A stretch of DNA of 64,000 nt, from the IMG/VR virus record IMGVR_UViG_2837005551_000004; one strand, given 5' to 3'. Positions 13,132 through 31,415 of this stretch are shown here, piece after piece (within the stretch, counting starts at the first letter, position 1; every line of letters starts with the position of its first letter). The notes below the pieces were generated by a model that was given only the letters and a program-made list of their open reading frames with translations, was not told the DNA's origin and ran no database searches. Source of the stretch: an uncultured virus (IMG/VR IMGVR_UViG_2837005551_000004) (taxonomy: Duplodnaviria > Heunggongvirae > Uroviricota > Caudoviricetes). A program made the translations under genes and the position numbers.

Positions 13132-13140
13132 TCATTGTTC

Positions 13141-13210
13141 CAATGCTTTGTCGGCTGCGCTCGGCATAGCCGGAGCAAGCTCCGCTCTGCTCTCACTGGC
13201 ACGACAATTC
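13141..13210 (-). repeat. ~70-bp structured intergenic element, copy 1
   Basis: Reverse complement aligns with 16358-16426. Confidence 0.75.
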
Positions 13211-13216
13211 ATATTG

Positions 13217-13846: not shown

Positions 13847-13853
13847 AGGTTTT

Positions 13854-14936: not shown

Positions 14937-14967
14937 TGCTGTTGTTGATTGTGTTTATAGGGTTTAT

Positions 14968-15978
14968 TTATTCGCTTAGGGGCGGGCAGTCTACGCCGTA
15001 CTCTTCTTTATACAGGCGCATATATTCCGCGGGCTGGTCTTTGCGGAGTGCAATGAGTTCGCTCTGCGGCACTTCGCTTAACTTGGTGTATTTCTTAGGC
15101 TGTTCACCTGCACCGGGGGCACTCTGTTTGTTCAGGTTCAGTGTGTCGGTGGGCTTCTGCTGTCCGGGCATAGCCTTGAATGTGTCTGCGAGCATTTCTG
15201 CGCCGGCGGCTTTACCGAGCTTAATGTAATGTTCACGCTGCGCCGCTAAAATCTTTCTGTCGGCAATAGCCTGATCCACGTACTGAGTTACGGACGCAAG
15301 CTGCAAAGTTTCGGCGCTGTCCGCCTTGGTTTTCATCAGCTGGAGCGCGGCTGTTACCTGCTCGTCGGACGCATCCTCGGGAAGTCCTAAGAGGATTAAC
15401 TGGTCTTTGTTCATCGCTGTTTTTATTATTTTATTATTGTTATTGATTTCCTCCCCCTCGCCGGGTTCATTCTCCGGCGCGGGCTTGGGTTCGTTCAGTT
15501 TCAAGAGCGGAAGTGTCGGGGCATCCTCACCGGCGGCGAGCTTCAACTGCTTGCCGTCTGCTCCACAGAGTTGCAGGGCTTCATCATTGCCGCCAATATC
15601 CACAATGCTAACCTCGATAAGTTTGCACCGTGTCACCGTTGCACGTGTCTGCCCTTCCAATGCTAAAGCCGGGTCTGGGTTCACTTCGGTAGGCTCCAGG
15701 GCTGCCGAAGCCATGCGCAAAAATCCGCTTTCCCATTTGCTCTCTATCTTCCGGGCAAATTCATCGTTTTGGTCAAATATCGGGGTGCCTATCAGCTTCC
15801 CCTCCTCAACTCTGAGGTTGTCAATTTTGCCGATAGGCATTGACTGACCGTCGAAAGCACGGCGGTGCATCCATAGCAAAACCGGGTTGCGCTTGAACTG
15901 CTCCAGGTCTATGCCCGAAGTCAGCACACGCGTGCCGTAGCTGTTTACTGCCTCAGTTGAGATTATTACTTCTTTCAT
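14968..15978 (-). CDS. Prohead protease / scaffold
   Basis: VNSYGTRVLT, NPVLLWMH, LIEVSIVDIGGN. Confidence 0.85.
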   Translation of the reverse strand: MKEVIISTEAVNSYGTRVLTSGIDLEQFKRNPVLLWMHRRAFDGQSMPIGKIDNLRVEEGKLIGTPIFDQNDEFARKIESKWESGFLRMASAALEPTEVNPDPALALEGQTRATVTRCKLIEVSIVDIGGNDEALQLCGADGKQLKLAAGEDAPTLPLLKLNEPKPAPENEPGEGEEINNNNKIIKTAMNKDQLILLGLPEDASDEQVTAALQLMKTKADSAETLQLASVTQYVDQAIADRKILAAQREHYIKLGKAAGAEMLADTFKAMPGQQKPTDTLNLNKQSAPGAGEQPKKYTKLSEVPQSELIALRKDQPAEYMRLYKEEYGVDCPPLSE

Positions 15979-16484: not shown

Positions 16485-16961
16485 ATGGCAACTAAAACCA
16501 AAAAGGAACGCGAACAGCAACGCGAACACGCGCGCCTCCTATATATGCAGGGGGAGCCTCAGAAGTCTATTGCTGAAAAAGTCGGCGTATCTGCTCAGAC
16601 TGTCACAAAATGGGTTGCGGAGGGTGGCTGGGAACAGGCACGAGCCGCCGCCAACATTACGAGACAGGAACTGGTTAATAAAATTTTTAACTCCATAAAT
16701 GTGTTACTGGAGGATTTGGCAAATGACCCCAGCCCGGAGAAAACAGCCGCCAGCGCTGACAAACTTGTGAAGTTTGCCGCCACTGTTGAACGCCTCGACA
16801 AAAAAACTTCCGTGGTTGACATTATAGAGGTATTTATGGCTTTCAGCAAATGGCTGCAATATCGTATGAGCTTCGACCCGAATGTCACCCCGGAACTGCT
16901 CAAAACCATTAACCATTATCACGACCTTTTCATCTCTGAAAAATTAAAAGAGTCTTTCTAA
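16485..16961 (+). CDS. Terminase small subunit (HTH)
   Basis: QKSIAEKVGVSAQTVTKW...W; precedes large subunit. Confidence 0.8.
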   Translation: MATKTKKEREQQREHARLLYMQGEPQKSIAEKVGVSAQTVTKWVAEGGWEQARAAANITRQELVNKIFNSINVLLEDLANDPSPEKTAASADKLVKFAATVERLDKKTSVVDIIEVFMAFSKWLQYRMSFDPNVTPELLKTINHYHDLFISEKLKESF

Positions 16962-16964
16962 AGT

Positions 16965-18512
16965 ATGACAAAAGCGGAATTAAAAAAAGCGATTGAGGAA
17001 TGGAAACAGCACTGCGAAACGGTGCAGGCTGCCACTTCCATTAACATCATAGAATCGCCGGCACAGCGTCTCGCGCGCATTGCCCGGCTGCGCTCTGATT
17101 ATACCGCTTTCGTTGATTACTATTTCCCACACTGGACTATTAACCCCGAAACCGGGAAAGCTACCCCTTGCGCTAAATTCCACATTGACGCGGCCAATAA
17201 GATAAAAGCCAACCGAAACCTCAAAGCCGGTTTTGTCTGGCATCGTGGTGCGGCTAAGTCTACCAATATGGACGTATTTGTCCCTATGTGGCTAATGTGT
17301 CAGGAACGCCGCGAAATTAACGTTATGGTCATCGTCGGCAAGTCTGAGGATAACGCTAAAACTCTGTTGGGTGACATTCAGGCGGAGTTACAGTACAACC
17401 AGCGTTATATTGCCGATTTCGGGGAACAGTACAACGCCGGATCCTGGGAGGAGGGAGAATTTGTAACGCAGACGGAAGTCGCATTTTTTGCCCGTGGTCG
17501 CGGTCAGTCTCCGCGTGGTCTGCGCTACCGCTCACACCGTCCGGATTACATCGTTATTGACGACCTCGACGACGACGAACTGGTGGAAAGTCCGGCGCGT
17601 GTCTCTAAGCTGTTCGACTGGGTGCGCTCGGCTCTGTTCGGTACTCTCGACGGTGGGCGCGGCCGCTTCTTTATGGTCGGTAATATGATTGCCAAAAATT
17701 CAGTGCTGGCGAAGTGGTGCGATATTAAGAGCGTACACGTTACCCGTGTAAACATCTACGACAAAAACGGCGATATTTCCTGGGCTGCCAAATGGACCCC
17801 GGAGGAAGTGCAGGCAATTGCCGACGTCGCCGGTTATCGTGCATTTCAAAAAGAATACATGAATAACCCGATAATTGAGGGTGCAGTGTTCCGCAACGAG
17901 TGGATCCGCTGGGGTAAGCGCCCTGCCTGGTCTAAGTTCTCGGAAATTGTGCTTTATATCGACCCCAGTTTCAAAGGCTCAAACAAAAATGACTTTAAGG
18001 CGGCGAAACTCTGGGGGAAAGCCGGGACTCAGCTCTGGCACCTCCGTGCTTTTGTCCGTCAGTGCTCCGTTGCCGAAATGGTACGCTGGTGTTACGACCT
18101 TTACGAATGGGCGCGCGCTCAGGGTATCGCCGTGCGCTGGTACATGGAGGCGAATTTTATGCAGGACACCATCCTCGATGAATTTATGCGAGAGGGTGAA
18201 CTTCGCGGCTACCAGCTCCCAATGACCGGCGACAAGCGCAAAAAGCCTGACAAGTTCCAGCGCGTTGAAGCTGTTTCGCCACTGTGGGAGCGTGGGTTCG
18301 TCTATTACGACGAGAGCCAGCGAGACGACCCCGATATGCTCGCCGGCATCGACCAGACCCTCGCATTTGAAAAGGGTATGCGCGGACACGACGACGCACC
18401 GGACGCCGACGAGGGCGCTATATGGATTTTACAGAGAGATACCCGACAAAAGAAAATTGTTTCATCCACTTCAATAGGGTTGCGACCTAACGCAAAAAAT
18501 GTATCATGGTAA
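16965..18512 (+). CDS. Terminase large subunit
   Basis: RGAAKST, RPDYIVIDD, YIDPS, HDDAPDA. Confidence 0.95.
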   Translation: MTKAELKKAIEEWKQHCETVQAATSINIIESPAQRLARIARLRSDYTAFVDYYFPHWTINPETGKATPCAKFHIDAANKIKANRNLKAGFVWHRGAAKSTNMDVFVPMWLMCQERREINVMVIVGKSEDNAKTLLGDIQAELQYNQRYIADFGEQYNAGSWEEGEFVTQTEVAFFARGRGQSPRGLRYRSHRPDYIVIDDLDDDELVESPARVSKLFDWVRSALFGTLDGGRGRFFMVGNMIAKNSVLAKWCDIKSVHVTRVNIYDKNGDISWAAKWTPEEVQAIADVAGYRAFQKEYMNNPIIEGAVFRNEWIRWGKRPAWSKFSEIVLYIDPSFKGSNKNDFKAAKLWGKAGTQLWHLRAFVRQCSVAEMVRWCYDLYEWARAQGIAVRWYMEANFMQDTILDEFMREGELRGYQLPMTGDKRKKPDKFQRVEAVSPLWERGFVYYDESQRDDPDMLAGIDQTLAFEKGMRGHDDAPDADEGAIWILQRDTRQKKIVSSTSIGLRPNAKNVSW

Positions 18513-18763
18513 TATTTGAATACTTCCGCGCCCTCCTGTTCGACTGGCGCAAAAAACGCGCGATCCGTGAAGCTCAGCGCTCCGCTGACCTCCACCGTAA
18601 AAAATTCCTGGTGCTTGTGCTTCATGGGCGCCCGGTCTGCGTATCTATGCAGGGCGTTAAAAAAATGATCCGGCAAAAGCGCCTCCCCGGCCTGACTGCC
18701 GAAAAAGCCCGCGAAATTGCAATTTATGAAGCTATGCCCAAAACTTCCGGCCTATGTTCCTGA
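18506..18763 (+). CDS. Hypothetical basic phage protein
   Basis: Overlaps neighbours in operon. Confidence 0.6.
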   Translation: MVIFEYFRALLFDWRKKRAIREAQRSADLHRKKFLVLVLHGRPVCVSMQGVKKMIRQKRLPGLTAEKAREIAIYEAMPKTSGLCS

Positions 18764-19170
18764 CTCTTGACGACTACCGGGGCGTGTGCGACGAATACGA
18801 GCTCAAGCAGATAACACAGAACGAAGAAACACGCCTGACCGCCGAAGCCGCCGCCCTGGAGCAAATCGGTTCTTATCTGCGTTATCGCTACGATATGACC
18901 CGGGTATTTGCTTCTGAGGGCTCAGAGCGTAACGCTATGCTCGTACAGTGCGCCGTAAATATTTCCCTTTGGCTAATGGTTCACCGTCTCCCTCAGAATA
19001 TGGGACACGAACGCCGGGAATGTCTCTATAACGACGCTATCAAATGGCTTCGCGATATTCAAGCCGGCAAAGCCTCCCCCGACTTACCTCTCTATGAGAG
19101 TGAGGACGGGGACGACGCACGCAACCCGGTGCGCTACGGCTCTATGAAACCAAACAGATACGACTATTAA
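18754..19170 (+). CDS. Mu gp36-like head-tail adaptor (DUF1320)
   Basis: SYLRYRYD, YNDAIKWLRDIQAG. Confidence 0.8.
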   Translation: MFLTLDDYRGVCDEYELKQITQNEETRLTAEAAALEQIGSYLRYRYDMTRVFASEGSERNAMLVQCAVNISLWLMVHRLPQNMGHERRECLYNDAIKWLRDIQAGKASPDLPLYESEDGDDARNPVRYGSMKPNRYDY

Positions 19171-19195
19171 ACACCCGTTAAATACCGTTTAACCC

Positions 19196-20152
19196 ATGTT
19201 TAAGCTGTGTGCTAAAATTGAGATAACCGGCGAGCGCTGCTGGGACATCGGCTTTGTCTCGGCGGTGGAGATTGTACGCGACACTGAGAAGCTCACAGCC
19301 GAAGCCAAAATAACACTCCCTAAAAAAATGAAGTGGAACGGCTCGGCTGAAATTCCTGTGCATCGTGGCGACTCCGTGCGTATTTATCTGGGATATAACG
19401 GTAATTTACAGCTTGCTTTTGTGGGTTATGTCCGTGACGTAGGCTTCAAAACTCCGGTTGTCATTACCTGCGAGGATGATATGTTCAAACTCAAACAAAT
19501 GCCGGCACAGAAAAAAGCCTACCGCTCTGTTACTATTGAAACGCTTCTTAAGGATCAGGGCATAACTTACCGGCTCAATGTTATGGGCGAACAGTCGCTC
19601 GGTGCTTATCGTGTCACCGCTGACACTGTGGCCGCTTTGCTCGGAAGATTATCAGAACAGGGCATCCGCTCATTTTTCCGATATGAGAACGGCGAGCCGG
19701 TTCTTTACTGTGGCGTGCTCTTTGACCGCGACAGTACTCCCTCGCAAGTGTTCCGCTCCGGGCTTAACATCATTTCAGACCAGAGCCTCCAGCAGCAAAA
19801 GGCTGAAAATATGCGCCTGCGCGTTAAGGCGGTCAGCCTTATGCCGGATAATAAAAAAATCAAAGTTGAGGTCGGCGACGCCGACGGCGAACACCGCACG
19901 CTCCACACCTACAACAAAACCGAAAGCGAGTTAAAGGCGTGGGCCGAACAGGAAATTAAACGCCTTAAACGCGACGGCCTCACCGGCTCTTTTACGACTT
20001 TCGGGGCTTCGCTTGTTGACTGCCTCGACGCTATCGGGCTAATTATCGACGGCAAAAAAGCCGGAGTCTATCAGGTCAAAAAGAATGTAATTAAATACGG
20101 CACGTCCGGCTACCGTCAGGAAATAACGCTCGGGCTGCGTGTCGGCGACTAA
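19196..20152 (+). CDS. Baseplate hub (gpD/gp44-like)
   Basis: LGYNG.L...FVGYV, CEDDMF.LK, GYRQEITLG. Confidence 0.75.
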   Translation: MFKLCAKIEITGERCWDIGFVSAVEIVRDTEKLTAEAKITLPKKMKWNGSAEIPVHRGDSVRIYLGYNGNLQLAFVGYVRDVGFKTPVVITCEDDMFKLKQMPAQKKAYRSVTIETLLKDQGITYRLNVMGEQSLGAYRVTADTVAALLGRLSEQGIRSFFRYENGEPVLYCGVLFDRDSTPSQVFRSGLNIISDQSLQQQKAENMRLRVKAVSLMPDNKKIKVEVGDADGEHRTLHTYNKTESELKAWAEQEIKRLKRDGLTGSFTTFGASLVDCLDAIGLIIDGKKAGVYQVKKNVIKYGTSGYRQEITLGLRVGD

Positions 20153-20162
20153 ATAAACAGTT

Positions 20163-20765
20163 ATGGCAGATTTACGAAATATCATCAGAGAACTGGCAAA
20201 GACCGACGGCGAGACTGTCGCGCTGGTCTGCACCGTGGACGCCGTGGACGAAAAAGCCCGCACAATCGACTGCACCCCGCTTAATGAGGGCGCCCCGTTG
20301 CTCGGTGTCAATCTACAAGCAAATCAGGGCGCGAATTACGGCTTTTGGCTTTATCCGGAAGTTGGCAGTTTTGTTATTGTCGGCTTCGTCGCAGACGGTG
20401 CCGCCGGGGTGGTTCTGAGCACTGAGAAAATAAAACAGGCCGAAGTCGTCATCGGTGACACCTCCGCCGTCATGGACGCTGACGGCTGCCGTATTAAAAC
20501 CGCCAATATGTCCGCCAACATCAACGCCGACAATATAATTTTTAACGGTGGCAAACTCAACGGCCTTGTTAAAATCGACGACCTCACAAAGCGGCTTAAC
20601 ACAATCGAAAACGAGATTAACAAGTTAAAGGGTATTATGGCCGGTTGGGTCCCTGTTGCTCAGGACGGCGGCGCAGCTCTTAAAACTGCCGCTGCCGACT
20701 GGAGCGCCGACACCCTTTTGCTGACAAAGCGCAGTGATTACGAAAACGAAAAAATTAAGCAATGA
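20163..20765 (+). CDS. Baseplate spike (gpV/gp45-like)
   Basis: OB-fold-like N-terminus, PEVGSFV, FNGG...GLVKI. Confidence 0.7.
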   Translation: MADLRNIIRELAKTDGETVALVCTVDAVDEKARTIDCTPLNEGAPLLGVNLQANQGANYGFWLYPEVGSFVIVGFVADGAAGVVLSTEKIKQAEVVIGDTSAVMDADGCRIKTANMSANINADNIIFNGGKLNGLVKIDDLTKRLNTIENEINKLKGIMAGWVPVAQDGGAALKTAAADWSADTLLLTKRSDYENEKIKQ

Positions 20766-21040
20766 ACGGACTGCAAATAGACACAACAACCGGCGACCTC
20801 CTTGTCGCACCCTCCGGCGCGCTCATCGCCCCGGCTGACTCTTTCATTGCTGAATTTGTCATCCGCTCCCTCCGCGGCGACATCAAGGAACACCCCCTCC
20901 TCGGTGCAGAAGCGCCCCTAATGCTCGCCGGCACTCCCGACCCGTTCTGGCCGGGCAACACTAAAAAAATGCTGCAAGCCTGCGGCCTCCCTGTCTCTAA
21001 CCTCACACTATCCCCCGACGGGGTGGTTATAATCTCTTAG
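20762..21040 (+). CDS. gp25/gp46-like baseplate protein, copy B
   Basis: RGDIKEHPLLG shared with 6342-6623. Confidence 0.65.
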   Translation: MNGLQIDTTTGDLLVAPSGALIAPADSFIAEFVIRSLRGDIKEHPLLGAEAPLMLAGTPDPFWPGNTKKMLQACGLPVSNLTLSPDGVVIIS

Positions 21041-21043
21041 CCT

Positions 21044-21472
21044 ATGCAGTTTATTGTTTCAGACCGTCAAACACTCCTCGACGCCGCAGTTATCGCGCTT
21101 GGCTCGGTCGCCGGTGTGTTCGCCCTCGCTCAGCGCAACGACATCAGTATAACGGCCACACTCGCCGACGGCCTCCCGCTCATCTTTGAGCTCGAGGACG
21201 TTGTGGCCCCGGCTGTCCGCTCGGCCTATGCCGTGCAACACATCAGCCCTGCCACCGACATACCCCGCGCCGATTATCTGGAGTTGCTCTACCAGACCGG
21301 AACACGCCGCCCGCCTGTCGCCCAGAAGTTCGACCCCGATAACGTCGGCATTGTGGTTGACAAAATCGACGAAGTGATCGCCGACCTTAACGCCGGCCGA
21401 CCGCTCAACATTCAGAGCAAAAACGAACTTACACGAATTTTTCAGGACCCTTTCGACGAGGTGTTCTCTTAA
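21044..21472 (+). CDS. LysM-like baseplate protein, copy B
   Basis: RQTLLD...ALA..N.ISIT.L.DG shared with 6046-6345. Confidence 0.65.
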   Translation: MQFIVSDRQTLLDAAVIALGSVAGVFALAQRNDISITATLADGLPLIFELEDVVAPAVRSAYAVQHISPATDIPRADYLELLYQTGTRRPPVAQKFDPDNVGIVVDKIDEVIADLNAGRPLNIQSKNELTRIFQDPFDEVFS

Positions 21473-21490
21473 CTCTTTTAATCCCTCAAA

Positions 21491-22147
21491 ATGGAACCAC
21501 TCACCCAAAACGACCTCAAGCAGCTTGACACGGCCGCGCTGCTGCTTCAAGCTCAGGCCATACGCGACGCGGTGGCCGCTAAAACCGTGTCGGCCCGTCA
21601 GGTTGGCGAGCTGTTCTGCGGCCTCATTGAAGCCTGCGACGACATCAACGCTGCCGTCAGCCTCTTTTTATCGGTCAACCTCCCGGAGATTTTGGCCGAC
21701 ATCGACAAACGGCTCGCCGGGGCTGACACTGCCGCAGCCGACACACGCGCGGAGCTCCAAAAGTCCGAAGCCGCCCGCGCCCGTATCGACTCGCTCATCT
21801 CCCAGCTATCCGGCCAGAGCCTCGCGGCTCCGCTCCGTGTTGACATCATCAGCGCGCCCCGTACTGTAACGCTCGCCAATCCCGTGCGCCAGCAGATACG
21901 CGCCCGCCTGTTCCCCAGCTTCGGCCTCGGCTCTGTCCTCTGCATGGGCGACCACCAAGCCCTCGACGTTTCGCCCGACGGCTTCATCACCCCGCTGCGT
22001 CTCGGCCGCTCTTATGTCAATGCCGTGGCTACCTCCGACACATCGGTTTACAAAACACTTTGCATCGATGTTGTGCCACCGCGTTGCCGTCTCACGGCCT
22101 CCGGCGCGCTACGTCTCGACGGCAAAGGTAATTTAAGACTCACATAA
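21491..22147 (+). CDS. Coiled-coil protein with C-terminal Ig-like domain
   Basis: C-terminus homologous to next gene (V.PDG, GALRLD..GN.RLT). Confidence 0.55.
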   Translation: MEPLTQNDLKQLDTAALLLQAQAIRDAVAAKTVSARQVGELFCGLIEACDDINAAVSLFLSVNLPEILADIDKRLAGADTAAADTRAELQKSEAARARIDSLISQLSGQSLAAPLRVDIISAPRTVTLANPVRQQIRARLFPSFGLGSVLCMGDHQALDVSPDGFITPLRLGRSYVNAVATSDTSVYKTLCIDVVPPRCRLTASGALRLDGKGNLRLT

Positions 22148-23268
22148 TGGCAACCGAAACACGACATATAAACTACAAAAGCGACTTTGTCCTCCGTGAG
22201 CGCTTCCGCGACGCTGCCGGCAAAATCGTGCCACTCCCCGACGGGGTGGACTTTGTGCTGACATATACAGTTAAGCACGGCCATACTTTCACGGCCTCGC
22301 GCTCCGGTGACGCTTATAAAAATTGCCTGCCCGACGGTGACGCCCTGCTTGTCATTTTCAAGGATCACGGCTTATGTGAGGGCACGCTGCGCCGTGAACT
22401 GCATTTGCAGCTAATTAACGACCTTATGCCCGACGGCCTGCAAAATGTATATTACCCCGCCGACCCCGGCGTAGAGCTCTGGCAGTTCGCCACCGACTCC
22501 CCGGGCGTCGTGGAGTGCGACCTGTTGGCGGCATACACCCGCGGCCTGCCGTTCACTTATGAGGATTTCACGCCGGAGCAGTTGGCCGCCCTCAAAGGCG
22601 ACAAGGGCGACCCGTTCACATGGGCCGACTTTACCCCCACACAGATTGAGATCCTGAAAAAGCCGGCGACCGAAGCCGCCGACCTCGCCAACACAGCAGC
22701 CAAAAAAGCAGACACCGCCGCAAATGAGGTGCGCGAACAGGCGCAAAAACTTGCCGACACATCGTCCGAAGCGGTCAAGACTTGCAATGCTGCCACCCAA
22801 GCCTCAAAAGCCGCCACAGGGGCCGCAGAAACAGCCACAGAGAACGCCCGCAACGCTGCCACGGCAACCAATGCCGAGCGTGAGCTTACAGAACAGAGCC
22901 GCCAACGCCTCGAAGCCGTGCCCGACCGTGCCGAACAGGTAGCCGCGCCAATTCCCGACGGGCTGCGCGTCATCAGCCCGGGCGTTGTCACTCTTGGCAA
23001 CGACGTGCCCCAATATATCCGCGCCCGGGTGCTTCCCGCCGGTGCGCTTCAAAATGTAATTTTTCAGGCTTTCGGCGGAGCTGCCGGAGTGGAGCCCGAC
23101 GGGCGTGTGCTGCCATTCCGCCCGGGTGTCGCCCAGGTGCATGTTATCCCCACGCTCGGCACTCGCTTTTACCAGACTGTTGAGCTGCGCGTTGTCGCTC
23201 CCTCCCTGCGTCTGGCCGCCCCGGGCGCGCTCCGCCTCGACTCTGCCGGCAATATTCGTTTAACTTGA
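22147..23268 (+). CDS. BppU-like upper baseplate / coiled-coil protein with C-terminal Ig-like domain
   Basis: INYKSDF N-terminus, FTYEDFTPEQLAALKGDKG, Ala-rich coil. Confidence 0.55.
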   Translation: MATETRHINYKSDFVLRERFRDAAGKIVPLPDGVDFVLTYTVKHGHTFTASRSGDAYKNCLPDGDALLVIFKDHGLCEGTLRRELHLQLINDLMPDGLQNVYYPADPGVELWQFATDSPGVVECDLLAAYTRGLPFTYEDFTPEQLAALKGDKGDPFTWADFTPTQIEILKKPATEAADLANTAAKKADTAANEVREQAQKLADTSSEAVKTCNAATQASKAATGAAETATENARNAATATNAERELTEQSRQRLEAVPDRAEQVAAPIPDGLRVISPGVVTLGNDVPQYIRARVLPAGALQNVIFQAFGGAAGVEPDGRVLPFRPGVAQVHVIPTLGTRFYQTVELRVVAPSLRLAAPGALRLDSAGNIRLT

Positions 23269-23280
23269 CATTTCACCGCA

Positions 23281-24525
23281 ATGGCTAATTTTTTAGATAA
23301 CATCCGCGACTATTTCAGCCGCCCCACACGCTCCCAGCTTCAGACGCTGGCGCGCGCCGTCGCCTCCAAAAAGGGGGTGCAGATTTCGGCAATGCTCCAG
23401 CAGCAGTCCGACTCCCTGACAAAAAAGGACATTGCCGACTGGCGAGCCGCTAACCAAATGGCTATCGACTACGAAAACCCAAACCGTTGCCGCCTTTATG
23501 ATATTTACGCCGATTGCGTCCTCGACGCCCACCTCTCCGGCTGTATCGCCCAGCGCAAGGGCAAAGTGTTGCAGAAAGATTTCCGCCTCGTGGACCAGAA
23601 CGGCAAGGAAAACACCGCCGCCACCGAACTGCTGCAAAGTGAGTGGTTCGCCGATTTCCTCAGCCTGTGTCTGGATTCTATCTACTGGGGGCCGACCCTC
23701 ATACAGTTGGGCGACATCATACGCGACGGCGGCCCGCTCCGTTTCAATAATGTGGAGCTTGTGCCGCGTAAGCATGTCATCCCTGAATATGGGGTTGTCG
23801 TGCGCTCCCCCGGCGACGACTGGCGCGGCGGCATTTCCTACCGTGAGGGCGACGTGGCTAACTGGTGCGTGGAAGTGGGCAAGCCGCGAGACCTCGGCCT
23901 GCTACTGAAGTGCGCCCCCTCATGTATCAGCAAAAAAAATATGCTGGCCTACTGGGACGTATTCGGCGAGATCTTCGGTATGCCTATGCGCATAGCCCGC
24001 GTTAACTCTCTCGACGAAGCGGAGCGCGCAAAGGTGGAGGCGTCTCTGCGCGACATGGGCGCGGCTCAGTACATCGTGGCGAGCGACGGCACCGAAATTG
24101 AAATTAAGGAAAGCAGCCGCGGCGACGCTTACAACGTCTATGACCGCCGCGTGGACCGCTGTAACTCCGAACTGTCTAAGGTGGTGTTAAATCAAACAAT
24201 GACTATTGACTCCGGCTCCTCGCTCTCGCAGTCAGAAGTGCACCTTGAAATTTTTGAGCGCACCACCGAAAGCGACGCCACAATGTGCGCCCACATCATC
24301 AACGGCCGGCTCCTCCCGCTCATGGTCCTGCACGGCTTCCCGGTCAAGGGCCTGCGCTTCCAGTGGAACAATGCCGCCGCGTTCTCTCCGGCTGAAAACC
24401 GCGAAAACCTGCGCCTCGTACTTGAATATTTCAACGTGCCGGGCGAACACATCACCGAAACACTCGGCATCCCGGTGGAGTCTCCGCGCGAAGCCAAAAC
24501 ACAGCCCGACCGTTTTTTCGACTGA
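23281..24525 (+). CDS. Portal protein (Mu gp29/DUF935)
   Basis: DAHLSGCI..RK, WDVFGEIFGMP, GSSLSQSEVH. Confidence 0.92.
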   Translation: MANFLDNIRDYFSRPTRSQLQTLARAVASKKGVQISAMLQQQSDSLTKKDIADWRAANQMAIDYENPNRCRLYDIYADCVLDAHLSGCIAQRKGKVLQKDFRLVDQNGKENTAATELLQSEWFADFLSLCLDSIYWGPTLIQLGDIIRDGGPLRFNNVELVPRKHVIPEYGVVVRSPGDDWRGGISYREGDVANWCVEVGKPRDLGLLLKCAPSCISKKNMLAYWDVFGEIFGMPMRIARVNSLDEAERAKVEASLRDMGAAQYIVASDGTEIEIKESSRGDAYNVYDRRVDRCNSELSKVVLNQTMTIDSGSSLSQSEVHLEIFERTTESDATMCAHIINGRLLPLMVLHGFPVKGLRFQWNNAAAFSPAENRENLRLVLEYFNVPGEHITETLGIPVESPREAKTQPDRFFD

Positions 24526-24568
24526 GCCGCACCCGGTCGCTTCTGGGAGTGGCCGGGCTGCGGCGCTC
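24513..24568 (+). other. Predicted -1 programmed frameshift signal (portal to MuF)
   Basis: T-TTT-TTC at 24513-24519, 6-nt spacer, hairpin from 24526; -1 frame continuous with MuF ORF. Confidence 0.75.
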
Positions 24569-26150
24569 ATATCTCGCGTTTAACGCCGCTTTGGGCGATT
24601 TGTATAGCGACGACCTCCTGCGACTCGCAGACGCGCCAGACAAGCCCGATTTTGACGACACGGCATTTTTTGACGCTGCCGGCATGGTCTATAATGCCGG
24701 TGGCTTCGACGCGTCGCAACTTTCCACCCCCGAAGCGCGCCGCCTCATCGCAGAGACTCTCAAGCAGATTAACCGCGCCATTTCCTCCGGCGTCTCCTAT
24801 GAGGTGCCGGAAACGGTGCGCCATGCCCTCGAAAACAATGCTTTTATTTTCTCCGGCTTCAAGGCTTACCACACGCTCCGCGAGGTGGGCTTGTCGCTCA
24901 CTACCGACACCGGCGAAATAAAGCCCTTTGAGCAGTTCCGCCGCGACGTGGAAAAAGTCAACAACCAATATAACCACAATTACCTTTATGCGGAATATAA
25001 CCACGCGGTCGGGGCTTCTCTTATGGCTGAACGCTGGCAAAAGATTGAAGCCGACGGCGACAAATACGACCTGCAATACCGCACGGCCATGGACGACCGT
25101 GTGCGTGAGGATCACGCCATTCTACATAACACGACGCTGCCACCCTCTGACCCGTTCTGGGAAATGTATCTGCCGCCCAATGGCTGGAATTGTCGCTGTA
25201 CGGCGGTACAGGTCCGCAAGGGCAAATATCCCCAGAGCGACCCGGCCCTCTCCATGCTCCGGGGCAACAACTGCACCGAAGCGGCCAAACAGCAGATTTT
25301 CCGCTTCAATCCCGGCAAAACATTAGAACTGTTTCCAGCCAAGCACCCATATTTCAAAGGGCCGAAGCCGCAGCAGGTAAAGCAGGCCATTGAGGGCTAC
25401 ACACCTGCGGAGTGGACCCCTAAAACAGTGGCCGAAGCTGAGCAATTTTTCCGCGACAAACTCGGCGTTAACTGCTCCCTAAAAGGCTTTACTAAAACCA
25501 ATATGGCACAAATTGAGTCTATTTTCCGAAGCGTGGAGCGCCATTTTCAATGTTGGCCGGAACTAAAAAAAGAAACGTTGTTTGTCGGTACCATTCGCGG
25601 TCGTACTGAGTTAATGACCTCCGCGCTGTTTGAGGAATACAAACGACTATACCCGGGACAACGTGAAAGCCTCCTGCTGGATATGGCTAAAAAATACGCC
25701 CGCAAAGCCTGTGCAAGTCCCGGTTGTTATGCCTATTCTCACGGATATGGCAAGCAGTACGGTTTAAGCGGTATTTGTTTTAACACCTCATGGGCTGGCG
25801 AAAAAATAGATAAGTCACTCGCCAGCGATGTTAAAAGCAAGTGGCACCCGCCCGGCTGCGGTACTCTTAAAGCGGTTTTTGACCATGAGCTGGGCCATGA
25901 GATTGACCGCCTGCTGGGCCTCCGCTCAAATGCAGACTTTCTCAAGCTGTTCAATCAGGAACACAGCAAGGGCAAAGCGCACATTACCGAGGTACTCTCA
26001 ACCTATGGCAATAAAAATGCCGCTGAGTTCATCGCTGAGGCGTGGTCCGAATATCTTAACAACGAAAAACCGCGGCCAATAGCGGTCGCGGTGGGTAATA
26101 TCATTAAAAAACTATATGAAGAAAAACATCAATCTTCATCAAGCAAATAA
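24549..26150 (+). CDS. MuF (gp30) head morphogenesis protein with C-terminal HEXXH metallopeptidase domain
   Basis: YRTAMDDRVREDH, PPNGWNCRC; C-terminal HELGH and STYG..NAAEFIAEAW. Confidence 0.88.
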   Translation: MAGLRRSYLAFNAALGDLYSDDLLRLADAPDKPDFDDTAFFDAAGMVYNAGGFDASQLSTPEARRLIAETLKQINRAISSGVSYEVPETVRHALENNAFIFSGFKAYHTLREVGLSLTTDTGEIKPFEQFRRDVEKVNNQYNHNYLYAEYNHAVGASLMAERWQKIEADGDKYDLQYRTAMDDRVREDHAILHNTTLPPSDPFWEMYLPPNGWNCRCTAVQVRKGKYPQSDPALSMLRGNNCTEAAKQQIFRFNPGKTLELFPAKHPYFKGPKPQQVKQAIEGYTPAEWTPKTVAEAEQFFRDKLGVNCSLKGFTKTNMAQIESIFRSVERHFQCWPELKKETLFVGTIRGRTELMTSALFEEYKRLYPGQRESLLLDMAKKYARKACASPGCYAYSHGYGKQYGLSGICFNTSWAGEKIDKSLASDVKSKWHPPGCGTLKAVFDHELGHEIDRLLGLRSNADFLKLFNQEHSKGKAHITEVLSTYGNKNAAEFIAEAWSEYLNNEKPRPIAVAVGNIIKKLYEEKHQSSSSK

Positions 26151-26356
26151 ACGCGCATTTTCTCGCGCTCCCCCTTGGGTTCAAATACAAAATTGCCCTT
26201 TTGTCCGGGCAATATATGGTCGTGACTCTCTGCCCCGTCCTCTATGATTTCAGACGGGATAAAGTCAAAAGCGGCACAGGTAAGCCCACGCCGAAAATGC
26301 TTGCAGTCCTCACACATGTAAGGTTGCGTTATTTCCTTATCGATAATATGTCCCAT
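26129..26356 (-). CDS. Small Cys/His protein, candidate immunity protein
   Basis: CEDCKH...C.AF..IP.EI.....H; convergent with MuF; TAAATTTG at 26372-26365. Confidence 0.65.
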   Translation of the reverse strand: MGHIIDKEITQPYMCEDCKHFRRGLTCAAFDFIPSEIIEDGAESHDHILPGQKGNFVFEPKGEREKMRVYLLDED

Positions 26357-26412
26357 TGTAGCCGCAAATTTAATAATTTATTCTGGTATAACAACACTTA
26401 AACACCAATTAA

Positions 26413-26895
26413 ATGCTCGACCCCAAGCAATTAAAGGCCGATATTCTCGAAGATATGCGCGTGGAGCTCTCCGACGAGTTCGACCGCAACTTTGAACGTA
26501 AGGGCTTTTTCTCCGACAAGTGGAAGCCTCGCGCACACGATTACGCGCGTGGCTCGCTCCTCATGCAGTCCAAGGCAATGCGCCGCTCCACACAGGGCGA
26601 AGTGTCCGGCGACGGCGTGCGCTTTACCTCCTCGGAGCCTTACACGGCCCTGCACAATGAGGGCGGGACAATCACCGTTACCGGCAAAATGAAACGCTTC
26701 TTTTGGGCGAAGTTCAAGGAAACAGGCGAGGTCGGCTGGAAATATATGGCCCTTATGAAAGTGGGGCAGGTTATCAAAATCCCGCAACGCCAGTTTATCG
26801 GCGACGGCCCGGAAACGCAAAAATTGATCCGCGACGTTATCCAGAGCAACCTCGACAAATTCAATTTACAACTAACTGAATTTTTAAGACAATGA
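26413..26895 (+). CDS. Virion morphogenesis protein (Mu gpG-like)
   Basis: HNEGG, IPQRQFIG. Confidence 0.85.
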   Translation: MLDPKQLKADILEDMRVELSDEFDRNFERKGFFSDKWKPRAHDYARGSLLMQSKAMRRSTQGEVSGDGVRFTSSEPYTALHNEGGTITVTGKMKRFFWAKFKETGEVGWKYMALMKVGQVIKIPQRQFIGDGPETQKLIRDVIQSNLDKFNLQLTEFLRQ

Positions 26896-27377
26896 GAAAA
26901 GCAATTTTTTACGCTGTGGCCGAAGCCGTGGCCGCTGTTCCGGGCGTGGAGTTCGTGGACCTCTGGAACGACGACGGCTCGCACTTTTCCGGCGGTGCCG
27001 TCTATCCGCTCCCGGCGGTGTTCGTGGAGTTTGAAGCTGTGGAGTGGAAGCAGCAGGGAATGGGCGCCCGCCGTGGCTCGCTCGCCCTCCGGCTTCATGT
27101 CCTCACCCGTGCCGTGCTGACACACGGCCACAACGACCCCCACATTCCTGAAGCCTTTGAGGTGTTCGACCTCCTCGACCATATCAACGCCGCAATGCAA
27201 GGACTGCGCGGCCCCCATTTCTCCGGCTTCATGCTCACCACCTCGGCGACAAACCACGCACACACCGAAATATGGGAAAATGTGGAGCGTTACATCTGCG
27301 GGGTGCAGGACATCACCGCTATGCGGCCGCCCTCGCGCGTTCTCGGCCTCTCTGCGGCCATTAAACAGACCGACTAA
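26892..27377 (+). CDS. Tail terminator-like protein (Mu gp37-like)
   Basis: VDLWN, PAVFVEF. Confidence 0.65.
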   Translation: MRKAIFYAVAEAVAAVPGVEFVDLWNDDGSHFSGGAVYPLPAVFVEFEAVEWKQQGMGARRGSLALRLHVLTRAVLTHGHNDPHIPEAFEVFDLLDHINAAMQGLRGPHFSGFMLTTSATNHAHTEIWENVERYICGVQDITAMRPPSRVLGLSAAIKQTD

Positions 27378-27757: not shown

Positions 27758-28495
27758 TTAAGGCTCTGCCTTTGCCTCGGTCTCGTCCGCCTCTGCGGTC
27801 GCTTCCGGGGCTTTTTCTTCCTCGGTCAGAAGATCCACGTCTGTAATGCCAAGCGGTATGTTACGCCAAGCGCCGGTCCCTTTGTCGCGGTACTGGGCGC
27901 GGATATAGCGCCGTGTGGCCGTCGGCTGGTAACTCTCGCGAATAATTTTCACACCCTCTTTGAACTGGTCGTCGTCGCTCTCGTCGGCAAGTTTCTGCAA
28001 CTGGAGCACACGGCTGGCGTTGAGGTTGCCCTGCTTGTCAGTGCTCAGCAGCCGGAGAACGGTCTGCACAAGCGTTTTGGTTTTCGCGTCGGTCGCAAGG
28101 CTTTCAATGTACTTGCGTACCATTGCAATGCCGGCCGTTACCATGTCGCCCCAGCCGTCAACGGTGTTAACGCCTAATGTCAGGCGCATGGTGCTGTCTT
28201 GGTTGGTGAATGTGTGCGACCATTGCCCATCCTCCTTGAAGCCCACGACCTCGGCTTTCATTTTGAGCACAGTGTCAAAATTGCCGAATACGGTATCTTT
28301 TACCGTCTTAATCTGTTCGCTCAGGCTGCGGAGCTCGGGGAGCGCGGTCTCCAGCTCTTGGTCCACTAATTGCGCGTAAGTCTCGCGCTGCTGTTTGCGG
28401 CGCTCTGCCGCTTCCTTTTTCTTTTCGGCTTCCTGAAAAGCCTCCCACTTGGCGAGCTGTTCCGCCGTCATGGTAACTTGGGTCTTTTCACTCAT
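27758..28495 (-). CDS. DUF3164-like Mu-type early protein
   Basis: GNLNASRVLQL, F.EGVKIIRESY. Confidence 0.75.
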   Translation of the reverse strand: MSEKTQVTMTAEQLAKWEAFQEAEKKKEAAERRKQQRETYAQLVDQELETALPELRSLSEQIKTVKDTVFGNFDTVLKMKAEVVGFKEDGQWSHTFTNQDSTMRLTLGVNTVDGWGDMVTAGIAMVRKYIESLATDAKTKTLVQTVLRLLSTDKQGNLNASRVLQLQKLADESDDDQFKEGVKIIRESYQPTATRRYIRAQYRDKGTGAWRNIPLGITDVDLLTEEEKAPEATAEADETEAKAEP

Positions 28496-28572
28496 CGGTA
28501 AATGGTGTTTAAGTGGTTATTAAATTGTGTTTAACTGTTTCGGTGTTTGTCCTTTTACACCGGCCCAGCTCC

Positions 28573-28734
28573 TTAGTTGTCGTAGTCCTCGGCGTCGGGA
28601 CTCTCGAAGTTGAGCGACCCGGCCTCTTGCGAAGCCCACCACGCCAGATCATCCAGCAGCTCGGCCCGGGCGTTCTCGCTCATGTGCGCCGTCTGCTCTT
28701 TAATCATCTCTTTAATCTTTTCAAGTTCTTTCAT
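28573..28734 (-). CDS. 53-aa acidic hypothetical protein (not in ORF track)
   Basis: MKELEKIKEMIKEQTAHMSENARAELLDDLAWWASQEAGSLNFESPDAEDYDN. Confidence 0.6.
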   Translation of the reverse strand: MKELEKIKEMIKEQTAHMSENARAELLDDLAWWASQEAGSLNFESPDAEDYDN

Positions 28735-28939
28735 TGTTTCGCTTTTTGAATTGCGCTTTTATTAGTTTGCCGGCTTCTCCGGGCTTGCCTACCAGCAGCC
28801 ACGCCACCATCTCCAGCAACAGACCGCCCATGAGCACCGCAACGGCTATTGCTATCCATGCCCACCAGAATGGGAGGCATACTTTGCGCAGGTTCTTTTT
28901 AGTTTTCTCTTTCATTCTCTTAATTGTTTGAGGGGTCAA
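28721..28939 (-). CDS. Small membrane protein
   Basis: One long hydrophobic segment, coupled in operon. Confidence 0.55.
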   Translation of the reverse strand: MTPQTIKRMKEKTKKNLRKVCLPFWWAWIAIAVAVLMGGLLLEMVAWLLVGKPGEAGKLIKAQFKKRNNERT

Positions 28940-29414
28940 AACTGCCGGGGGTCGTGTAGTGCTGCATGAGCAGCGCGTCGGTCAAAGCGTCAACCGCCCG
29001 GGCGTCTTTTACCTTGTTGTTAAATGTCGCTATGAGGTTGCGCAGCCTCTCGCGGGGTATTTTGTTGAAGTCGCTGTAACCACTCGCACGCTCTGCAATA
29101 CCTTTGATCTTCGCCACGTTCTCGGGCTGCCCGGTCTGCCGAAGCCAGCCGCCAATCGCGGCAATTACCTGCTTGCGCAGTTTGTCAAGTCTGGCCGTGC
29201 CCTGCTTCTCGTCCACCTGCTCGCTCAGCTTGGCGCAAATGTCTATGAGCTGGTGTTGGCTCAGGTCGCGGCTGCTCTCAACGCCCCAGCTTGTCAGGAT
29301 CGCGCGCTTGGCTTCATCATCAAGCCCCAGCACCGTGCAAAGGGTGTGATAACGCTTTAATAGCCCTTTGTGGATTTGGTCCATTGTTTTATTTTCCTTT
29401 TTCGCCATTGTCAT
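28920..29414 (-). CDS. GemA/gp16-like early protein
   Basis: GVESSRDLS, position in early operon. Confidence 0.55.
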   Translation of the reverse strand: MTMAKKENKTMDQIHKGLLKRYHTLCTVLGLDDEAKRAILTSWGVESSRDLSQHQLIDICAKLSEQVDEKQGTARLDKLRKQVIAAIGGWLRQTGQPENVAKIKGIAERASGYSDFNKIPRERLRNLIATFNNKVKDARAVDALTDALLMQHYTTPGSFDPSNN

Positions 29415-30062
29415 TTACTTTAATTGTTCTGCCCAATACTCTGCCGCGCCCTGCTCCCAGATTATGAAGTCCGCGCCGCCCTCGCCCCGCTCTGCGTCCT
29501 CGTAGCGTGTCGTAACAAATGCCTTGAAGCCCTCAACCTTGATTTTTATCTCGGCGTCATAGCGGATTTTTCCGGCCAACTTGCCGTCCGGATCCTTGCC
29601 TGCCCGGTCGGCCTGACTTATGAAAATAAACAGTTTATCGGGGTACTCTCTTTTGAGCTTCTTAAAGCTGGCCCAGTTGAAGCCGTCCAGATATTGCACG
29701 CTGTCAATTATGATTATTTCAGGGCTTTTGCGCTTGTTCAGACGCGCCCGGAGCTCGGGGAGTTCCTCTTTGTTCAGCAGGATCACACTGTTGCCGGCTT
29801 CGCCCATTCCGACGCGCTCCCATGCCTTTTGCAGTGATAGGCTCAACCCCTGCTCGAGGCTGTTGTAGGCCACGCGCCCAAAGTTCGCCAGATACTTGCA
29901 GAGCATGAGCGTAAACGTGGTTTTGCCGGAGCCGGAGCCGCCCCATATTATCCACGTTCCGCGAAGCTCGGGACGGCCGAAGCTCGCCAGCCATTCACCG
30001 GCAAACTCCACCGTCTCAAACCGCGCTGCAAGCACATTTTGATTGCTTATCGCTCTGCTCAT
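29415..30062 (-). CDS. RecA/KaiC-fold ATPase
   Basis: GGSGSGKTT, SLEQG, IIIDS. Confidence 0.85.
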   Translation of the reverse strand: MSRAISNQNVLAARFETVEFAGEWLASFGRPELRGTWIIWGGSGSGKTTFTLMLCKYLANFGRVAYNSLEQGLSLSLQKAWERVGMGEAGNSVILLNKEELPELRARLNKRKSPEIIIIDSVQYLDGFNWASFKKLKREYPDKLFIFISQADRAGKDPDGKLAGKIRYDAEIKIKVEGFKAFVTTRYEDAERGEGGADFIIWEQGAAEYWAEQLK

Positions 30063-30069
30063 TCTCTCG

Positions 30070-30348
30070 TTATTTCATCTTTGGCCGAAGTCTCAGCACA
30101 TTGGGACCGTACCCCTTGGCCTCAATCATCTTGTTTAATGCTTTTCGTTTTGCCGCCAAATCCTCGGAAGTGCTGGCGGTAATTTTCACTACAAGCACCC
30201 GGCGACCTGTAAGCGGCTGCGTTGTCCGTTTAACTGTTATGTCGCACGTCCAGCCCTCCTCGAGCCATGTCTGCAACACCTCGGGCACCCACCCGGGCAT
30301 TAGCTCGAAAGTGCTGCTATATTTCAGTGTTACGGGGTAAGGTTTCAT
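30070..30348 (-). CDS. Hypothetical protein
   Basis: Coupled early ORF. Confidence 0.55.
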   Translation of the reverse strand: MKPYPVTLKYSSTFELMPGWVPEVLQTWLEEGWTCDITVKRTTQPLTGRRVLVVKITASTSEDLAAKRKALNKMIEAKGYGPNVLRLRPKMK

Positions 30349-30554
30349 TTTTGAATTTGTTTTTTATATTCTCTTAGTCGCCGTATGCAAGCGCCCATTA
30401 TGAGCGCTTGGTCGGTCTTGCCTTTGATGTTTCCGGCAATGGTTGCCACGATTGTGTCGGTTAGCACCTCCAGAGCCTGCCCCATGTCGTCACACTCGCA
30501 AATAGTGTTATAGACCTTGTAGCTTATCTCCGTGCTTTTGTTCTGCTTGCTCAT
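30345..30554 (-). CDS. Hypothetical protein
   Basis: ATG overlapping MuB stop. Confidence 0.55.
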   Translation of the reverse strand: MSKQNKSTEISYKVYNTICECDDMGQALEVLTDTIVATIAGNIKGKTDQALIMGACIRRLREYKKQIQK

Positions 30555-31402
30555 TTTGCACCTCCTTTCACCTTGGCCCATACGGAGCGTTTAACGCGCC
30601 GCAGGTCGCCGTCGGCCTCGTCTATAATGCTGTTAATTGTCTTGGTGTCTGTCACACCGTTGGCGACGCATACGGCGGCCACGTCCTCACTGTTGTGGAG
30701 GGGCAGTTCCACAAACTTGCGACCCAAGCGGCTGAAGATCTCCGCATAGCCTTTGCGGTTCAGGCGCAGCCCCTTTTCAATCCGGGCGCGCAAGTAGCTG
30801 GTCGCGGTCAGGATAATGCCGCAGTGGTCCTCAAGCTGGTTGTAAAGGCTTATGAAAAAGTAAAGCACTTGGTCGCTCAGCTTGTCGGCCTCGTCCAGAA
30901 CTATGAGCGGCGTTTCTTTGCGCTTCAACGTGTCTACAATAGCGTCCATCATGTCGGCCACGGTGTTGCCGCTGTATGCCACGCCCATTGTCTGGAGCAC
31001 CTTTGCCATGAACGTGCGCCGGTTCCAGTACTCGGAGCAAACAAGGTGGTACACGTTGCGCCCGGCTGCCGTGTAGTTCTTTACGGCCTCGGTCTTGCCG
31101 CTCCCGGCTTCACCGATTACAGCCATCACCAGGGCGTCGCGCTGCGCGTTCTCCAGGGCAAAGGTCATGGCGTTGTAGGCACGGGTCGGCACCAACTGCC
31201 ACCCCTCGGCGCCGCGCCCGTTTATCTGCCCGGCTATGCTGCGCCACATCTCGTCGGCTATGGTCTCCCAGTTGCCGGCCAATATCTTGCTCACGGTCGC
31301 GCTGCTCACCTTTAACGCGGTGGCCGCTTTGTTCTGGCTCCCTTTTTGCTCGCAGTAGGCGCGGAGCTGGTCGCTGATCTGTTGTTTCTCTTGTGTTGTC
31401 AT
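30551..31402 (-). CDS. MuB-like transposition AAA+ ATPase
   Basis: N-terminal HTH, GEAGSGKT, LIVLDEADKL, DLRR. Confidence 0.92.
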   Translation of the reverse strand: MTTQEKQQISDQLRAYCEQKGSQNKAATALKVSSATVSKILAGNWETIADEMWRSIAGQINGRGAEGWQLVPTRAYNAMTFALENAQRDALVMAVIGEAGSGKTEAVKNYTAAGRNVYHLVCSEYWNRRTFMAKVLQTMGVAYSGNTVADMMDAIVDTLKRKETPLIVLDEADKLSDQVLYFFISLYNQLEDHCGIILTATSYLRARIEKGLRLNRKGYAEIFSRLGRKFVELPLHNSEDVAAVCVANGVTDTKTINSIIDEADGDLRRVKRSVWAKVKGGAK

Positions 31403-31415
31403 ATCCTTTTACGTC

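Follow-up and report, generated by a model that had tools for sequence, protein, structure and literature searches.

Portal gene end and predicted recoding signal

How is the MuF head protein translated at a locus in which its reading frame is already open inside the upstream portal gene, in the -1 frame, and in which the first possible start codon of that frame is placed within a strong predicted RNA hairpin? This question is raised by a stretch of 64,000 nucleotides (nt) from an uncultured virus of the Caudoviricetes (IMG/VR record IMGVR_UViG_2837005551_000004), which is called the window here. A preliminary description, made from the sequence alone, had predicted that a programmed -1 ribosomal frameshift fuses the portal to MuF. 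This prediction was supported by a conserved signal, by the lack of a conserved MuF start and by in-frame fusions of both proteins at the homologous point. It is considered here, with a probability of roughly 85% and on the basis of sequence comparison, that the conserved signal at the portal end is functional as a -1 ribosomal frameshift joining MuF to the portal. The elements involved, including the open reading frame (ORF) of MuF, are given below with sizes in amino acids (aa) and base pairs (bp).

23281..24525, plus strand: portal gene of the Mu gp29/DUF935 type, 414 aa, zero frame (Pfam PF06074; phrog_113)
24513..24519, plus strand: slippery heptamer T_TTT_TTC, in X_XXY_YYZ phase in the zero frame (seen in the sequence and conserved in relatives)
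24520..24525, plus strand: 6-nt spacer GACTGA, which includes the zero-frame stop TGA (24523-24525)
24526..24564, plus strand: predicted stimulatory RNA hairpin of 17 bp (from folding and from covariation in relatives)
24519..24548, plus strand: linker codons of the -1 frame, RLSRTRSLLG, from the slip site to the annotated MuF start
24549..26150, plus strand: MuF ORF (SPP1 gp7/Mu gpF family), -1 frame, 533 aa from GTG (Pfam PF04233; phrog_324)

Both genes were recognised by their profiles. The ORF at 23281-24525 matched Portal_Mu (PF06074) over profile positions 1-336 of 336 (E = 1.2e-71; 242.3 bits, cut-off 23.9) and the portal family phrog_113 (E = 2.7e-56), and the downstream ORF matched Phage_Mu_F (PF04233; E = 2.6e-14; 54.4 bits, cut-off 29.6) and the head morphogenesis family phrog_324 (E = 1.2e-109). 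No single ORF of the window runs across portal and MuF, the zero-frame TGA at 24523-24525 being placed between them.

The last portal codons are CGT (24511-24513), TTT, TTC, GAC and TGA (24523-24525), and the phased heptamer that had been read in them at first sight was confirmed; it permits the re-pairing of both tRNAs, from UUU/UUC to UUU/UUU in the -1 frame. The GC-rich hairpin noticed after the 6-nt spacer was likewise found, with its 5′ arm at 24526-24542, a CTGG loop at 24543-24546 and its 3′ arm at 24547-24564, in which a single C is bulged at 24558. The folding energy of the segment 24513-24570 was -32.7 kcal/mol (z = -4.08), a value that was equalled by none of 200 shuffled sequences. 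An intrinsic terminator was also considered for this hairpin and ruled out, because a T run is absent after the stem on both strands. As initially described, the -1 frame passes through the linker directly into the MuF ORF (FF-RLSRTRSLLG-VAGL...). This frame is open from about position 24426, and its first ATG, GTG or TTG is the annotated GTG at 24549, within the 3′ arm of the hairpin and 24 nt past the portal stop. The predicted portal-linker-MuF fusion would comprise 956 aa, with a mass of about 108 kDa. Since this signal is kept in relatives, it is taken to be more than a chance arrangement of letters.

Conservation of the heptamer and of the reading frame

Relatives of the junction were gathered from two sources. 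A portal search of viral contigs returned 126 confirmed stretches, the best 80 of which were used; two of them (L006 and L076) stop too early to hold both genes, leaving 78 viral loci with portal and MuF. A profile search of contigs from one genome per species returned 117 relatives, the best 80 of which were used, and 76 of these 80 presented at least 400 nt downstream and could hence be assessed for the MuF frame. Together with the window and the hankyphage jmh72_hp, the 160 loci (L001-L160) made up a set of 162, whose portals were from 100% to 29% identical to that of the window, and counts were made on the 118 distinct 190-nt junctions that this set contains. The genome-contig relatives were mainly Bacteroidales, including Muribaculaceae, Alistipes, Odoribacter, Porphyromonas, Bacteroides, Parabacteroides, Prevotella and Paludibacteraceae, and a few metagenome-assembled genomes that were labelled otherwise had probably been mis-binned.

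It was observed that an in-phase TTTTTTN was present inside the last 25 portal codons at all 162 loci. MuF was found in the -1 frame at 78 of the 78 viral loci with both genes, and a long downstream ORF occupied the same frame at 76 of the 76 assessable genome loci. The alignment of related junctions, which had been named in the preliminary description as the way to check the prediction, therefore returned the heptamer and its phase without exception, along with a stem that covaries in seven of seven pairs, as described in the next section. Among the 118 distinct junctions the heptamer was TTTTTTC in 116 and TTTTTTT in two, and the zero-frame stop was found one codon past it in 113; in L156, L159 and L160 this stop is placed 12-13 codons further, with heptamer and hairpin still present.

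The conservation extends to positions that the portal protein does not account for. The codon bearing the first base of the heptamer, here called the X-codon, was CGT in 34 junctions, GGT in 27, CCT in 25, GAT in 13, AGT in 10, TCT in seven, CAT in one and AAT in one. These eight codons specify seven amino acids and carry T at the third position in every junction, the frequency of third-position T in the rest of the same portals being 16.7%. The junctions come from related sequences, but these eight X-codons point to repeated change in which the T was retained. Moreover, phenylalanine in the rest of these portals was encoded by TTC 1285 times versus 441 for TTT, only 10 of 26 other FF pairs were spelled TTT-TTC, and the portal tail ahead of FF was otherwise poorly conserved. 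As judged from these junctions, the synonymous positions of the slip site are conserved beyond the needs of the protein.

The downstream hairpin and its covariation

A GC-rich stem was found 5-6 nt past the heptamer in every clade, with a sequence that differed by clade: GCCCCGC/GCGGGGC, GGGCTG/CAGCCC, GGGACTG/CAGTCCC, GGGGGCAGGG/CCCTGCCCCC and CGGGCGT/ACGCCCG. When the best single hairpin starting 4-8 nt past the heptamer was compared with those of 708 random coding positions from the same loci, the median energy was -15.8 kcal/mol for the 118 junctions versus -8.6 kcal/mol for the controls, and 113 of the 118 hairpins fell below the control median. With this definition of the hairpin, the spacer measured 5-6 nt in 91 of the 118 junctions, spacers of 5-9 nt being standard for -1 signals.

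Covariation was evaluated on 40 junctions with a 21-nt hairpin at a fixed offset, which could be aligned without gaps. In this set 96.9% of the cells were paired and changes on both sides were observed in all seven stem pairs; the covariation score was reached by none of 500 shuffles, and slid controls gave 30-60%. Read in the -1 frame, many of these stem changes replace the amino acid on each of the two arms (SPA..AGL, SPT..VGL, SPS..EGL), and therefore pairing, rather than the amino acids encoded, appears to be what is kept.

The same fusion could in principle originate one step earlier, if the RNA polymerase slipped on the six T and added one U to a fraction of the transcripts, from which the fused protein would be made by ordinary translation. 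The site is a homopolymeric T run, variants with seven T occur in nature, and T runs are known slippage sites according to passages of PMC4066793. However, the covarying hairpin is found 5-6 nt downstream, as would be expected of a ribosomal stimulator, and in 116 of the 118 junctions the run was not lengthened, starting at codon position 3 and being followed by C. In addition, six T make a short run, since efficient polymerase slippage usually takes about nine. An RNA-library contig from a relative crosses the region corresponding to 24484-24631 without an indel, which argues in the same direction but weakly, since rare variants are lost from contigs and DNA may be present in the library. Polymerase slippage is thus regarded as very improbable, and the signal is better read as one that acts on the ribosome.

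In-frame portal-MuF fusions

Portal and MuF also occur as a single protein. The family phrog_35074 spans both, the portal matching its profile positions 12-367 and MuF its positions 496-672, and among 58 longer homologues (732-984 residues; 26-51% identical to the portal) PF06074 and PF04233 were both present in 57. Passages of PMC7302621 describe in-frame portal-MuF genes in the Microbacterium phage clusters EA3, EA5, EA8 and EB. As a separate observation, KKK stands at the portal-MuF join of many in-frame fused homologues (P0005-P0028), a hint at A-run signals in other lineages.

Two kinds of in-frame fusion were found in which the join occupies a position homologous to that of the window. 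The first is found in L168 and L169, two IMG/VR contigs that are DNA relatives of the fused protein P0015 and have seven T versus six in their relatives (L168:1507-1560). In these contigs the in-frame reading, ..DDFFRLSPA.., is the predicted trans-frame sequence, and the +1 frame gives FFD and a stop. This seven-T form is represented by the two contigs and by a protein cluster of 10 members. The second kind is found in three phages of Porphyromonas gingivalis (PP754929, L161:3751-3800; BK068094, L165; BK068090, L166), which are 94-98% alike and whose annotated 'portal' of 852-853 aa is an in-frame portal-MuF protein. The join of these phages retains CGT TTT TTC, the 6-nt spacer and a GCCCCG..CGGGGC hairpin, and their -1 frame closes after about 20-26 codons. 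In this way, a -1 slip in the P. gingivalis phages would yield a truncated, portal-only protein, in a dnaX-like inversion of the layout predicted for the window.

Phylogenetic range of the signal

The most distant portal of the set belongs to the hankyphage (Bacteroides phage p00, jmh72_hp), which is 29% identical to the portal of the window and presents AAA CGT TTT TTC GGG AAA followed by a 6-bp hairpin, with MuF in the -1 frame. In the hankyphage-like layout (L170:3400-3480, which corresponds to p00) the zero-frame stop is placed 12-13 codons past the heptamer. An ATG overlaps this stop in p00 (ATGGTGA) and in L156 (ATGGTAG), and the corresponding letters in L159 and L160 are CTGGTAG, so that some of these relatives have a coupled start and others lack it.

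Outside that set, Elizabethkingia phage TCUEAP3 (OK632026; L171:3448-3748), with a portal identity of 27%, presents AAT TTT TTC and a hairpin based on 8 bp (z = -3.3). Its annotated minor head protein is preceded by a 276-nt unannotated gap that the -1 frame crosses without a stop, and the same recoding is probably present in this phage of the Flavobacteriales. In Winogradskyella phage Peternella_1 (L164:3640-3815) the portal ends in CTA AAA AAA GTG GTC TAA and MuF is open in the -1 frame, an arrangement that suggests an A_AAA_AAA slip site. No such site was found in the Flavobacterium phages FPSV-S1 and lotta8-2, in BcepMu or in Faecalibacterium phage Mushu, in which MuF has its own ATG in the +1 frame. 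Among the phages examined, the signal was found only in Mu-like phages of Bacteroidota, and it does not extend to Mu-type portals in general.

Predicted translation of the -1 linker and start codons of MuF

In the relatives, the -1 peptide begins with FFR(L/V), continues as a variable linker rich in Gly, Asp, Lys, Pro and Ser, and leads through a conserved helix ending in LY to the remaining MuF, the conserved LY being found 19-46 residues past FF in 112 distinct junctions. Between the heptamer and this LY, stop codons were observed in none of the 112 junctions in the -1 frame, in all 112 in the zero frame and in 88 in the +1 frame. Moreover, L129 and L135 have a -1-frame stop immediately 5′ of the heptamer, and therefore the heptamer is the only site at which the frame could change there. 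Ahead of the conserved helix, the open -1 frame was devoid of ATG, GTG and TTG in 66 of the 112 junctions, and of ATG in 97. The GTG of the window is missing in L003, whose portal is 94% identical to that of the window. It is concluded from these comparisons that an independent MuF start is not conserved.

It is conceivable that the frameshift is real but minor, and that most MuF is made separately, either through initiation at its GTG (24549) or through termination-reinitiation coupling at the portal stop. The GTG is placed 24 nt past the portal stop in the window and in its nearest relatives, a candidate start precedes the conserved helix in 46 of the 112 junctions, and in hankyphage p00 and L156 an ATG overlaps the zero-frame stop; MuF is also translated from an overlapping ATG in Mu-like phages of Proteobacteria and Firmicutes (BcepMu, FP_Mushu). 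However, the GTG at 24549 is buried in the -32.7 kcal/mol hairpin, it was lost in the closely related L003, and more than half of the junctions (66 of 112) have no canonical start ahead of the helix. Several of the candidate starts in the other 46 are found far upstream within the portal gene or within the stem. In Bacteroidota, initiation occurs without a Shine-Dalgarno sequence and prefers unstructured, A-rich leaders, to which the GC-rich stem bears no resemblance. On these grounds it is judged unlikely that most MuF has its origin in a separate start.

It could also be argued that no recoding occurs, portal and MuF being ordinary neighbours, as they are annotated in the hankyphage and other records, and the FF codons and the hairpin being kept for the portal C-terminus, for mRNA stability or for processing. 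Such a view leaves unexplained the invariant third-position T in a codon that stands for seven different amino acids, the universal -1 relation of the two genes, the stop-free -1 linker of variable length, the missing starts and the in-frame fusions at exactly the same point, and it is regarded as extremely improbable.

Several observations weigh against a -1 frameshift as the source of MuF. All of its support is comparative, and the loci share descent, so that the counts are not independent events. The FF dipeptide is kept also in in-frame fused homologues that are known as protein only, and part of its conservation could therefore act at the protein level. As for the hairpin, just 37 of the 118 were at or under the 5th percentile of the controls, five were weak (L099, L100, L112, L150 and L155), that of the hankyphage reached a z of only -0.6, and the Mann-Whitney p of the comparison was uncorrected for phylogeny; the 40 junctions of the covariation set had been pre-selected for at least six of seven pairs, with a bias toward structure. 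Finally, some ATG, GTG or TTG does precede the helix in 46 of the 112 junctions, the GTG at 24549 of the window included, and the ATG of hankyphage p00 overlaps the portal stop (ATGGTGA), which makes an independent or coupled initiation of MuF possible there.

Proposed mechanism

The preferred reading, in which ribosomes slip at the portal end, would proceed as follows. Ribosomes translating the portal mRNA would meet U_UUU_UUC with tRNA-Phe on UUU in the P site and on UUC in the A site, and would be stalled by the hairpin that begins 6 nt downstream. A fraction of them would slip back by one base, both tRNAs re-pairing on UUU UUU, and would continue through a short flexible linker into MuF. 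Two products are expected in this way: the 414-aa portal, from ribosomes that do not slip and terminate one codon later, and the 956-aa portal-linker-MuF protein. The sequence is of a kind known to be slippery in Escherichia coli, in which U_UU.Y tetramers rank second after A_AA.G and H_HH.U_UU.Y heptamers are among the most efficient, the heptamer U_UU.U_UU.C being used by insertion sequence (IS) elements, according to passages of PMC4066793.

The fused subunits may co-assemble with plain subunits into the portal ring. Since the C-terminal crown of a portal points toward the inside of the capsid, an extension at this end would be housed within the head. The slip efficiency would set the dose in which MuF enters the capsid, together with the variable cargo at its C-terminus (in the window, a zincin-like domain), and a later cleavage in the linker is conceivable. 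The fixed stoichiometry and the enzyme placed at the DNA exit channel, both put forward in the preliminary description, are inferences of the same kind.

Published mass spectrometry of hankyphage capsids (PMC12135933, S6 table) reported three MuF peptides in the gel slice of 250-85 kDa, and MuF was also detected in the slices of 85-30 and 30-10 kDa. The 250-85 kDa slice in the same table also holds Gam and the adaptor, and many small proteins are spread over the slices as MuF is; because of this smearing of the gel, the data are uninformative on a fusion.

Comparison with known systems

The nearest parallel is the tail assembly chaperone G/GT frameshift, a -1 event that Xu, Hendrix and Duda reportedly described in 2004 for lambda and most long-tailed phages. 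In both cases the upstream gene is structural, and a conserved -1 slip close to its end would extend the product into the next ORF, which has no start of its own; the short and the long assembly protein would come from one mRNA at a constant ratio. Unlike in G/GT, the genes involved are the head genes portal and MuF, the heptamer is U_UUU_UUC instead of G_GGA_AAG, the signal includes a strong hairpin that covaries, and both products are presumably components of the virion, not chaperones. A G/GT site is placed between two tail assembly chaperone ORFs, immediately ahead of the tape measure gene, which in the window is found at 7264-9432, on the opposite strand. The portal-MuF site would work like G/GT but is no member of it; the portal-MuF case is comparable to the tail-chaperone frameshift, and the -1 kind of frameshift is itself already known.

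A similar design is found in the OrfA-OrfAB frameshift of IS3/IS911, as set out in passages of PMC4066793, with a heptamer shortly before the upstream ORF ends, a hairpin that stimulates the slip from downstream and a longer fusion product. The genes concerned are here those of a phage head and not a transposase, and an upstream Shine-Dalgarno-like stimulator is not expected in Bacteroidota (no search was made for one). In E. coli dnaX, which encodes tau and gamma, a heptamer and a downstream stem-loop direct a -1 frameshift that gives two products per mRNA, and the slip shortens the protein. The window shares with dnaX the heptamer, the stem-loop and the two products predicted from one mRNA; unlike in dnaX, its slip would lengthen the protein, the dnaX-like orientation being found only in the P. 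gingivalis phages and in the variants with seven T.

The in-frame portal-MuF genes of the Microbacterium clusters, the P. gingivalis phages and phrog_35074 contain the same two domains in the same order. However, the join of the window needs a change of frame, the portal alone being the default product, whereas the fusion is the default in the P. gingivalis phages. In SPP1, the portal gp6 binds the MuF protein gp7 strongly and brings a few copies of it into the procapsid, and MuF proteins bear C-terminal cargo that is thought to be delivered to the host, according to passages of PMC6316719. The proposed system resembles this one in directing a low-copy MuF to the procapsid interior via the portal, but its tether would be covalent and set by translation instead of binding affinity, and would either take the place of the non-covalent portal-MuF binding of the SPP1 type or add to it.

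No earlier account of a frameshift between portal and MuF came up in the literature searched; the search did not cover the supplements of PMC4066793, which deal with five prophage clusters and could bear on priority. The first 300,000 characters of a 2016 review of recoding (PMC5009743) contained none of the terms 'portal', 'head morphogenesis', 'Mu-like' and 'minor capsid', and the main text of the hankyphage paper contained neither 'frameshift' nor 'portal'.

C-terminal domain of MuF

The protein encoded downstream of the slip site had been called a MuF-metallopeptidase in the preliminary description. Its MuF part was borne out by PF04233 and the HELGH motif is present, the peptidase assignment being suggestive only. 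The domain in question is the following.

25416..26138, plus strand: C-terminal zincin-like domain of MuF, residues ~290-530 (HELGH; weak profile and fold matches)

HELGH, which fits the zinc-binding motif HExxH, occupies MuF residues 446-450 (25884-25898). The C-terminus matched the Pfam family ATLF with 19.4 bits, under the cut-off of 27.4. An AlphaFold model of MuF, with a mean predicted local distance difference test score (pLDDT) of 78.3, was aligned by VIA-align to the catalytic domain of lethal factor with a Z of 8.8, middling for a helical domain (174 aligned residues; root-mean-square deviation 3.7), and to Pro-Pro endopeptidases (PPEP/Zmp1) with Z of 5.5-6.5. Foldseek with the whole MuF model returned no match at E <= 0.001, and a sequence search of the PDB with MuF returned none at E <= 1. 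From the motif and the model, it is plausible, and suggestive only, that the MuF C-terminus is a zincin-like peptidase (M34-like, with the lethal factor/PPEP fold).

This C-terminal domain is exchangeable among close relatives (L004-L162). Among the 102 relatives listed, seven carried HELGH, 18 a motif of the WHEITH type and 77 no HExxH, most of these 77 having a MuF of about 440 aa. The peptidase-like end is just one of several MuF C-termini, and therefore the frameshift belongs to the portal-MuF pair and not to the peptidase.

Prophage context

The window contains a gut-bacterial prophage of the Mu-like transposable type, in which PHROG matches identify the following genes in addition to portal and MuF.

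7264-15978, minus strand: protease/scaffold, major head, sheath and tape measure genes
16485-18512: small and large terminase
18754-19170: adaptor
30551-31402, minus strand: transposition protein B
31416-33434, minus strand: transposase
33952-34428: repressor-like gene

The packaging and portal block (from the small terminase to the neck, 16485-27377, plus strand) has the reverse orientation of two other blocks, one with the protease, capsid, sheath and tape measure genes (7264-15978, minus strand) and one with the early and transposase genes (27758-33434, minus strand), an arrangement unlike the colinear late region of Mu. At 21491-23268, two adjacent ORFs of 218 and 373 aa both match phrog_20680, a family of unknown function, over their C-terminal parts; they look like paralogues and have an unusual position, between a baseplate-hub-like gene and the portal.

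Implications

With the portal-MuF signal, the head-assembly module of a large group of Bacteroidota phages from gut, oral and environmental sources would gain a recoding event that is conserved but unannotated. Gene calls are directly affected, since MuF starts are now guessed, sometimes in a way that cuts conserved sequence or leaves gaps of up to 276 nt. In the hankyphages, for instance, MuF is annotated in p00 (BK010646) from the ATG that overlaps the portal stop, and the ATG used in jmh72_hp truncates the conserved helix. The signal also provides a clean comparative training case for frameshift-prediction tools, in a phylum without Shine-Dalgarno-based initiation, and a cultivable system exists in the hankyphage of Bacteroides thetaiotaomicron, for which capsid mass-spectrometry data are published.

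A further and more doubtful proposal, which can be advanced only tentatively, is that in Mu-like phages of Bacteroidota, including the hankyphage, which is common worldwide, MuF has no expression of its own and is produced exclusively as a portal extension whose dose the frameshift sets. If this were true, cargo transport would be built into the portal ring: a few of its twelve subunits would keep MuF, with an exchangeable enzyme attached (a zincin in the window), within the capsid and beside the DNA channel, set to leave first at infection. A switch of the default frame would then allow lineages to adjust the dose, as in the variants with seven T and in the P. gingivalis phages, in which a slip would lead to the plain portal. 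Beside G/GT, tailed-phage assembly would have a second recoding rule of wide occurrence. For the phages that carry it, the portal-MuF signal offers a mechanism that may both dose and target an internal head protein of low copy number, along with the variable enzymatic cargo that it bears.

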